NCBI RefSeq assembly: GCF_003018235.1
Contig: NZ_CP027437.1
Origin: Escherichia coli
Lineage (GTDB): Bacteria; Pseudomonadota; Gammaproteobacteria; Enterobacterales; Enterobacteriaceae
Strand: one strand, 5' to 3'
DNA: 64,000 bases
Part shown: in pieces, positions 38,839 to 39,237 of the stretch
Layout: every line of letters starts with the position of its first letter
How positions within the stretch are numbered: the first letter of the stretch is position 1
Notes under the pieces: model-generated
The model's database searches: none
What the model saw: the letters and a program-made list of their open reading frames with translations, nothing else
What the model was told of the DNA's origin: nothing
Position numbers and translations under genes: made by a program

Positions 38839-39013
38839 TCAGTTAGTGCATGTTTTTTTCGATGCACTAATAGAACCATCATTACAGACAAATTTGCCGC
38901 CTGCCGTACAGTGTGAGATCCCCCCTTTCGAACCAGAACAGGGTTTGCGCCCGGCATCGGCAAAAAAGGAAACAAGCGCTCCTATAACCAAGATGTTTTC
39001 ATATAACCTCCAT
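38839..39013 (-). pseudogene. ydcA: ydcA-like small cysteine-rich secreted protein gene, apparently disrupted at its 5' end
   Basis: Minus-strand frame encodes ...[45 protein letters not shown], but the nearest upstream ATG (39001-39003) is out of frame and hits a stop after 6 codons. Confidence 0.35.
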
Positions 39014-39172
39014 GGTTTATCGAATCTTATGTTCGATTTGAACGTTATACGCTGGTTTATTTTGATACCGTTGATGAGATCAAAGATCGGGTGAATTGAT
39101 TAAAGATAAGCCAGATGGACGTATGGATAAGGATTATGGTTTTATTTGTCATACAAATAAATATAATAGGCG

Positions 39173-39237
39173 CTTCCGATGTAGACCCGTATTCTTCGCC
39201 TGTACCACGGGTCGGTTTTAGTACAGGCGTTTTCTTT
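39173..39237 (+). ncRNA. rydC: RydC small regulatory RNA
   Basis: CTTCCGATGTAGACCCGTATTCTTCGCCTGTACCACGGGTCGGTTTTAGTACAGGCGTTTTCTT matches the RydC sequence as I recall it, with terminator hairpin CGCCTGTAC...GTACAGGCG and U-tail. Confidence 0.55.

Follow-up and report, generated by a model that had tools for sequence, protein, structure and literature searches.

The window analysed here is a 64,000-nucleotide stretch of Escherichia coli DNA (assembly GCF_003018235.1, contig NZ_CP027437.1), and all positions refer to it. The base data were the sequence of 38500-39700, a six-frame list of open reading frames and an Rfam scan covering the entire window; comparisons with K-12 DNA were made by alignment with the K-12-like strain 2_0. 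The neighbourhood has the standard E. coli gene order trg / hokB-sokB / yncP / ydcA / rydC / cybB / gapC, and its features are listed in Table 1. Using positions 38780-39260 as a megablast query, the locus was found in 5,415 of 5,426 complete E. coli genomes. In these other genomes the locus almost always spans 491 bp, compared with 481 bp in the window.

Table 1. Features of the ydcA-rydC locus, with positions in the window.
Feature	Position	Strand	Basis or remark
hokB/mokB/sokB type I toxin-antitoxin locus	38472-38767	+	Rfam RF01794, 109.7 bits, 38472-38623
hokB CDS	38618-38767	+	49-aa ORF; annotated in ETEC1738 and K-12-like strain 2_0
yncP, 22-aa ORF downstream of ydcA	38745-38813	-	ORF list; annotated equivalently in ETEC1738 and the K-12-like strain
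Remnant YdcA frame	38839-38994	-	open from ATC 38994 or TTG 38991; TGA 38841-38839
Frameshifted ydcA ORF MKTSWL	38982-39002	-	native ATG 39002-39000; TAG 38984-38982
Deletion junction	38995-38996	-	between 38996 and 38995; 10 bp absent, from alignments and prefix/suffix analysis
Native ydcA Shine-Dalgarno GGAGG	39007-39011	-	same in all aligned alleles
Divergent ydcA-rydC intergenic region	39003-39172		170 nt; carries the YieP-responsive rydC control region
rydC -10 box TATAAT	39162-39167	+	5 nt upstream of the RydC 5′ end; invariant relative to K-12
rydC, 64-nt small RNA	39173-39236	+	Rfam RF00505
RydC 5′ seed	39173-39182	+	matches Rfam model consensus and K-12
RydC pseudoknot helix 1	39184-39190 with 39207-39213	+	7 Watson-Crick pairs, Rfam consensus structure
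RydC helix 2 (terminator stem), then UUUUCUU	39197-39205 with 39221-39229	+	9-bp MFE stem
cybB (cytochrome b561), convergent with rydC	39247-39777	-	531-nt CDS annotated at the equivalent ETEC1738 position

On the hokB side, the Rfam match named 'sok antitoxin' lies on the same strand as hokB and reaches the hokB ATG; it therefore covers the leader of the hokB/mokB mRNA and not the antisense Sok strand. The small gene yncP, encoded on the strand opposite to hokB, overlaps the hokB 3′ end; its label is 'protein YncP' in some genomes and 'hypothetical protein' in others. It differs from the strain 2_0 copy by one nucleotide (minus strand of 38788, G in the window and A in 2_0), which we read as a predicted Arg/Lys change at residue 6. 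On the other side, cybB is the conserved 3′ neighbour of rydC (PMC11340327). Further downstream, gapC, encoding a type I glyceraldehyde-3-phosphate dehydrogenase (39966-40967, plus strand), is an intact 333-aa ORF in the window and in ETEC1738; the annotation of strain 2_0 gives it a frameshift and an internal stop.

A 10-bp deletion at the start of ydcA

The intact YdcA pre-protein consists of a 20-aa Sec signal peptide followed by a 37-aa periplasmic peptide with four cysteines. A preliminary description of the window had assigned the cysteine-rich frame on the minus strand to YdcA, and this assignment is confirmed: the mature 37-aa domain is the same as that of K-12 YdcA at both the DNA and the protein level, with the cysteine pattern C-x8-C-x7-C-x12-C intact. 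The beginning of the gene is altered. Four bases separate the native GGAGG from the ATG, and directly after ATGAAAA the ten bases AACTGGCACT, nucleotides 8-17 of the intact coding sequence, are missing. In the alignment with strain 746, the parental DNA around the lesion reads GGAGGTTATATGAAAA, then the absent segment AACTGGCACT, then CATCTTGG. The same 10-bp gap is seen against the K-12-like strain 2_0, SCAID WND2 and strain 746, the last of which is the same as the window over 38830-39060 except for the gap. Within 38900-39100, the 10-bp indel is the sole difference between the window and six genomes, among them strain 746 and isolate AF40. Microhomology or slippage was considered as the deletion mechanism and was rejected, as prefix/suffix analysis gave a junction overlap of 0.

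The loss of 10 bp puts the ydcA ATG out of frame, leaving six codons and then TAG. The indel is not a multiple of three and brings a premature stop after MKTSWL, as in a frameshift pseudogene. The preliminary description had noted an out-of-frame ATG with a stop after six codons, which is correct, although the ATG is at 39002-39000 and not at 39001-39003. It had also supposed that the 5′ sequence is not that of K-12, and the alignment agrees: K-12 has ten more bases at this point, and its rydC is identical.

The remaining YdcA frame

In the six-frame ORF list, the YdcA frame contains no in-frame ATG or GTG. Translation from TTG gives 50 aa, and from ATC 51 aa; the TTG had been recognised before as the remaining canonical in-frame start, but its product is 50 aa and not the 44 aa given then. 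The spacing from the Shine-Dalgarno sequence is 15 nt for TTG and 12 nt for ATC. The frame comprises the final 13-14 signal-peptide residues and the whole four-cysteine mature domain. The residual pre-sequence of 13-14 aa has no lysine or arginine, compared with 20 aa and two lysines in intact alleles; its hydrophobicity is very high (mean KD about 2.0), and the ADA cleavage motif is retained. As judged from its translation, any product of this frame would have a signal peptide without the MKK n-region and with only about half of its h-region. A complete 57-aa pre-protein, with an ATG start, a basic n-region, a core and an AxA motif, is not found in the window.

Database annotation treats this frame as a protein. 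On the NCBIfam model NF007462, the 50-aa remnant scores 119.7 bits (cutoff 118) over profile positions 8-57 of 57, compared with 147.3 bits over positions 1-57 for K-12 YdcA. A local Pfam-A scan of K-12 and window YdcA returned no family; PF27300:YdcA is listed for the 51-aa product in precomputed annotations only. RefSeq/PGAP gives an ATC-started 51-aa CDS (WP_064226499.1), named 'hypothetical protein' or 'YdcA family protein' and carrying no pseudogene flag, and PGAP calls a CDS for the deletion allele in three genomes. The mature domain itself (38839-38949, minus strand) has a motif, C..GGI..C...G..VCNDG, that weakly matches PDB 7muc_AN (E 0.0023), a 124-aa chain in which the motif is repeated twice and which is deposited as 'Neurogenic locus notch protein homolog'. 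This chain presumably belongs to the structure of the Legionella Dot/Icm (T4SS) secretion system. The match may reflect a shared small disulfide-rich domain.

RydC and its control region are unaffected

RydC is a well-characterised, Hfq-dependent, pseudoknotted small RNA, whose single-stranded 5′ seed serves target pairing. The preliminary description had placed RydC at 39173-39237, with a length of 65 nt. The Rfam covariance model RF00505 matches at 92.5 bits (gathering score 48, E 5e-17), from model position 1 to 64 of 64, which supports the identification and shortens the RNA by one nucleotide. The unpaired 5′ seed, beginning CUUCCGAUGU, is the same in the RF00505 consensus and in K-12. The 3′ arm of helix 1 sits in the loop of helix 2, giving the interleaved arrangement of a pseudoknot. 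The terminator is intact, as had been proposed: the 9-bp stem folds and is followed by UUUUCUU, as in K-12. Across rydC, the TATAAT box and the terminator, the alignment with strain 2_0 is identical base for base. The z-score of the whole-molecule minimum free energy is unremarkable (-0.48), which is expected because MFE folding cannot represent a pseudoknot. A terminator scan returned part of the RydC stem (39198-39212) and a hairpin inside cybB (39256-39277).

The rydC promoter has been described as a perfect TATAAT with no obvious -35 (PMC11340327). The genomic context in the window is as described in that study, with cybB convergent and TATAAT as the -10 box. A sigma-70 consensus scan that needs both hexamers found no promoter in 38750-39300, a result that is uninformative given the reported lack of a recognisable -35. 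In that study, YieP repressed rydC and also a rydC'-lacZ fusion containing its upstream 171 nt, and RydC was reported to activate cfa (PMC11340327). In the window, the 171-nt fragment corresponds to 39002-39172. Its boundary is the ydcA ATG, and it therefore does not contain the deletion, which lies 6 nt beyond it, inside the ydcA coding sequence. The intergenic region (39003-39172) has no indel relative to strain 2_0 and four single-nucleotide differences (39148, 39128, 39127 and 39105). RydC and its 171-nt control region are untouched by the ydcA deletion. From its identity to the K-12 RNA, the function and regulation of RydC are expected to be normal here: the intact gene would produce an Hfq-dependent pseudoknotted RNA from a YieP-repressed TATAAT promoter and would activate cfa.

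The deletion allele is rare and occurs on several haplotypes

We searched for the deletion with a 47-mer spanning the junction, which seeds only on deletion alleles because megablast needs an exact word of 28 nt. Among 5,426 complete E. coli genomes, exactly three, each from a pig isolate, have the junction: ETEC1738 (Belgium), HCP5S3_I2 (UK) and LCP30S3_I5 (UK). In a large protein collection, the 51-aa product occurs on 122 contigs in 120 blocks, corresponding to about 120 further assemblies; for comparison, 485 contigs of this collection carry the parental allele and at least 1,000 the K-12 allele.

Comparison of six 12-kb carrier loci distinguishes at least three flanking haplotypes. The draft genome GCA_038099465.1, the nearest sequence found, has one difference from the window in 12 kb, the ETEC1738 group has about 42, and GCA_022101215.1 has 132 in 10.7 kb, with different upstream genes. 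Three carriers, one from each haplotype group, are nevertheless the same as the window, position by position, over 38400-39503, which includes hokB, ydcA and rydC. The identity of this segment across haplotypes indicates that the deletion has a single origin and is an established, low-frequency polymorphism on recombinant backgrounds, and not an assembly error.

The best-matching complete genome, ETEC1738, is 99.1% identical to the window over 24 kb. Differences are sparse across approximately 35-45 kb and rise to 1-2% in the flanks (about 27000-35000 and 45000-51000). The central 10 kb or so, from ydcI to hrpA, has only about 17 positions that differ from ETEC1738/HCP5S3_I2. This near-identical centre between flanks of 1-2% divergence points to recombination breakpoints near 35 kb and 45 kb. 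In GCA_022101215.1 (DAGGEJ010000004.1, 1-1435), the neighbourhood on the hrpA side is replaced by three short unannotated ORFs of 112, 149 and 125 aa, and the cybB-aldA side is also much more divergent.

Consequences for YdcA

In E. coli, TTG is a weak initiation codon and ATC a very poor one, and Shine-Dalgarno spacings of 12-15 nt are inefficient. Based on the available start codons, their geometry relative to the Shine-Dalgarno sequence and the truncated signal peptide, the deletion allele is very probably a null or strongly reduced ydcA pseudogene, and we infer that YdcA expression and export are lost. Ribosomes engaging the native Shine-Dalgarno sequence and ATG would make MKTSWL and then terminate. 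The YdcA frame, left with TTG or ATC as its only possible starts, would not be initiated efficiently. The allele would have arisen once and would survive in E. coli as a low-frequency variant. No secondary decay is seen yet, as the remnant frame is fully open and the DNA for the mature domain has not diverged from K-12; this identity means either that the lesion is recent in evolutionary terms or that decay is slow in the region. Some residual activity is conceivable at two steps. With the TAG of the short ORF only 7 nt downstream of the TTG, some re-initiation could occur; the short hydrophobic pre-sequence with its ADA motif might still permit inefficient export.

These residual activities form the core of the main alternative, in which the allele makes a functional, N-terminally shortened YdcA of 51 aa (ATC) or 50 aa (TTG), by weak initiation or re-initiation and with a minimal signal peptide. 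In its favour, the frame reaches the normal stop without interruption, its NF007462 score is just above the cutoff, three genomes have it as a PGAP-called CDS, the short ORF stops close to the TTG, the residual segment is very hydrophobic and retains the cleavage motif, and the allele persists on several haplotypes. Nevertheless, we consider this alternative unlikely. Apart from the weak start codons and the absence of an in-frame ATG or GTG, both spacings fall outside the efficient range, and the pre-sequence lacks any basic residue and is shorter than the intact 20 aa. An open frame and persistence of the allele are equally expected if a dispensable gene was lost recently and neutrally. It is also conceivable that the deletion is not neutral, either because a leaderless or poorly exported YdcA has an altered activity in the cytoplasm or retained at the membrane, or because loss of YdcA was selected in pig-associated E. 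coli. Selected loss, if true, would explain why the deletion haplotype is found on at least three flanking backgrounds; we regard a non-neutral deletion as decidedly improbable.

There is very little chance, in our estimation, that the deletion acts mainly through rydC, by altering the ydcA transcript or a divergent control region common to both genes and thereby changing RydC expression. The two genes are divergent with only 170 nt between them, and both were chosen as candidate YieP targets in a ChIP-exo-based analysis (PMC7642389). However, the deletion is in the ydcA coding sequence, outside the fragment sufficient for YieP-dependent regulation (PMC11340327), the -10 box and rydC are unchanged, and ydcA mRNA was reported to be unaffected by deletion of yieP (PMC7642389). 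We give almost no credence to a sequencing or assembly error that would conceal an intact ydcA in the true genome. The gap does adjoin an A-run (ATGAAAA), where 1-bp errors arise easily, but a 10-bp loss is unlike a homopolymer-type error. A read-level indel error at 38990-39010, as suggested by the preliminary description, is not supported either: three complete genomes, assembled independently and originating from Belgium and the UK, share this junction, as do about 120 further assemblies, and the carriers represent at least three flanking haplotypes.

A pseudogenised ydcA therefore remains the preferred reading, and as such the case is a biologically ordinary one: a known locus with a low-frequency pseudogene allele. 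Both ydcA and rydC were already known, and the allele has been deposited more than 100 times. The present analysis adds the exact lesion and its parental allele, the frequency and mosaic spread of the deletion, and the recognition that the frameshift is hidden by the ATC-start model in RefSeq. Treating WP_064226499.1 as an intact 51-aa protein inflates the YdcA family with an N-terminally truncated member. The carriers, at least 120 assemblies, are predicted to be ready-made ydcA-deficient strains with an intact rydC, and could help to separate the effects of ydcA from those of rydC at this tightly packed divergent locus. The biological weight is small: RydC is unchanged, and deletion of ydcA gave only a conditional phenotype in one study, where it sensitised E. 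coli W to 300 mM 3-hydroxypropionate (PMC7642389). The same work reports an earlier link of ydcA to YdcI and acid induction (PMC7642389), and elsewhere YdcA is described as 57 aa long, with a signal sequence and of unknown function (PMC11340327).

Comparison with known alleles

Compared with K-12 rydC and RF00505, the window has no difference within rydC and shares the TATAAT box, the cybB-proximal site, the pseudoknot helices and the terminator. For ydcA, the reference is the K-12 gene as present in strain 2_0, a 174-nt CDS encoding a 57-aa 'periplasmic protein' (WP_000731833.1). The two alleles have in common the locus, the strand, the neighbours (hokB/yncP on one side and rydC/cybB on the other), the Shine-Dalgarno sequence and the ATG, and they differ in that the window lacks CDS nucleotides 8-17, which places the ATG out of frame. 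Four signal-peptide substitutions relative to K-12 (F9V, M10I, T12A and Y17F, in K-12 numbering) are common to the window and the strain 746 allele. That parental allele (WP_001595708.1; strain 746, isolate AF40 and others) has AACTGGCACT and encodes the full 57-aa pre-protein. The intact alleles translate to 57-aa proteins beginning MKKLAL.

Other apparently damaged ydcA alleles, known from their protein sequences, are likewise low in frequency and restricted to lineages, but they carry different mutations at different positions. One (P0007), in E. ruysiae/E. coli on 5 contigs, encodes 50 aa and is N-terminally shortened (MFVGMLVSF...). Two others (P0011 and P0013) encode 56 aa and end in ...SKKNMH; the last cysteine is lost in both, and a frameshift in the A7 run close to the 3′ end is the probable cause. 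The occurrence of such low-frequency damaged alleles is consistent with ydcA being a dispensable gene.
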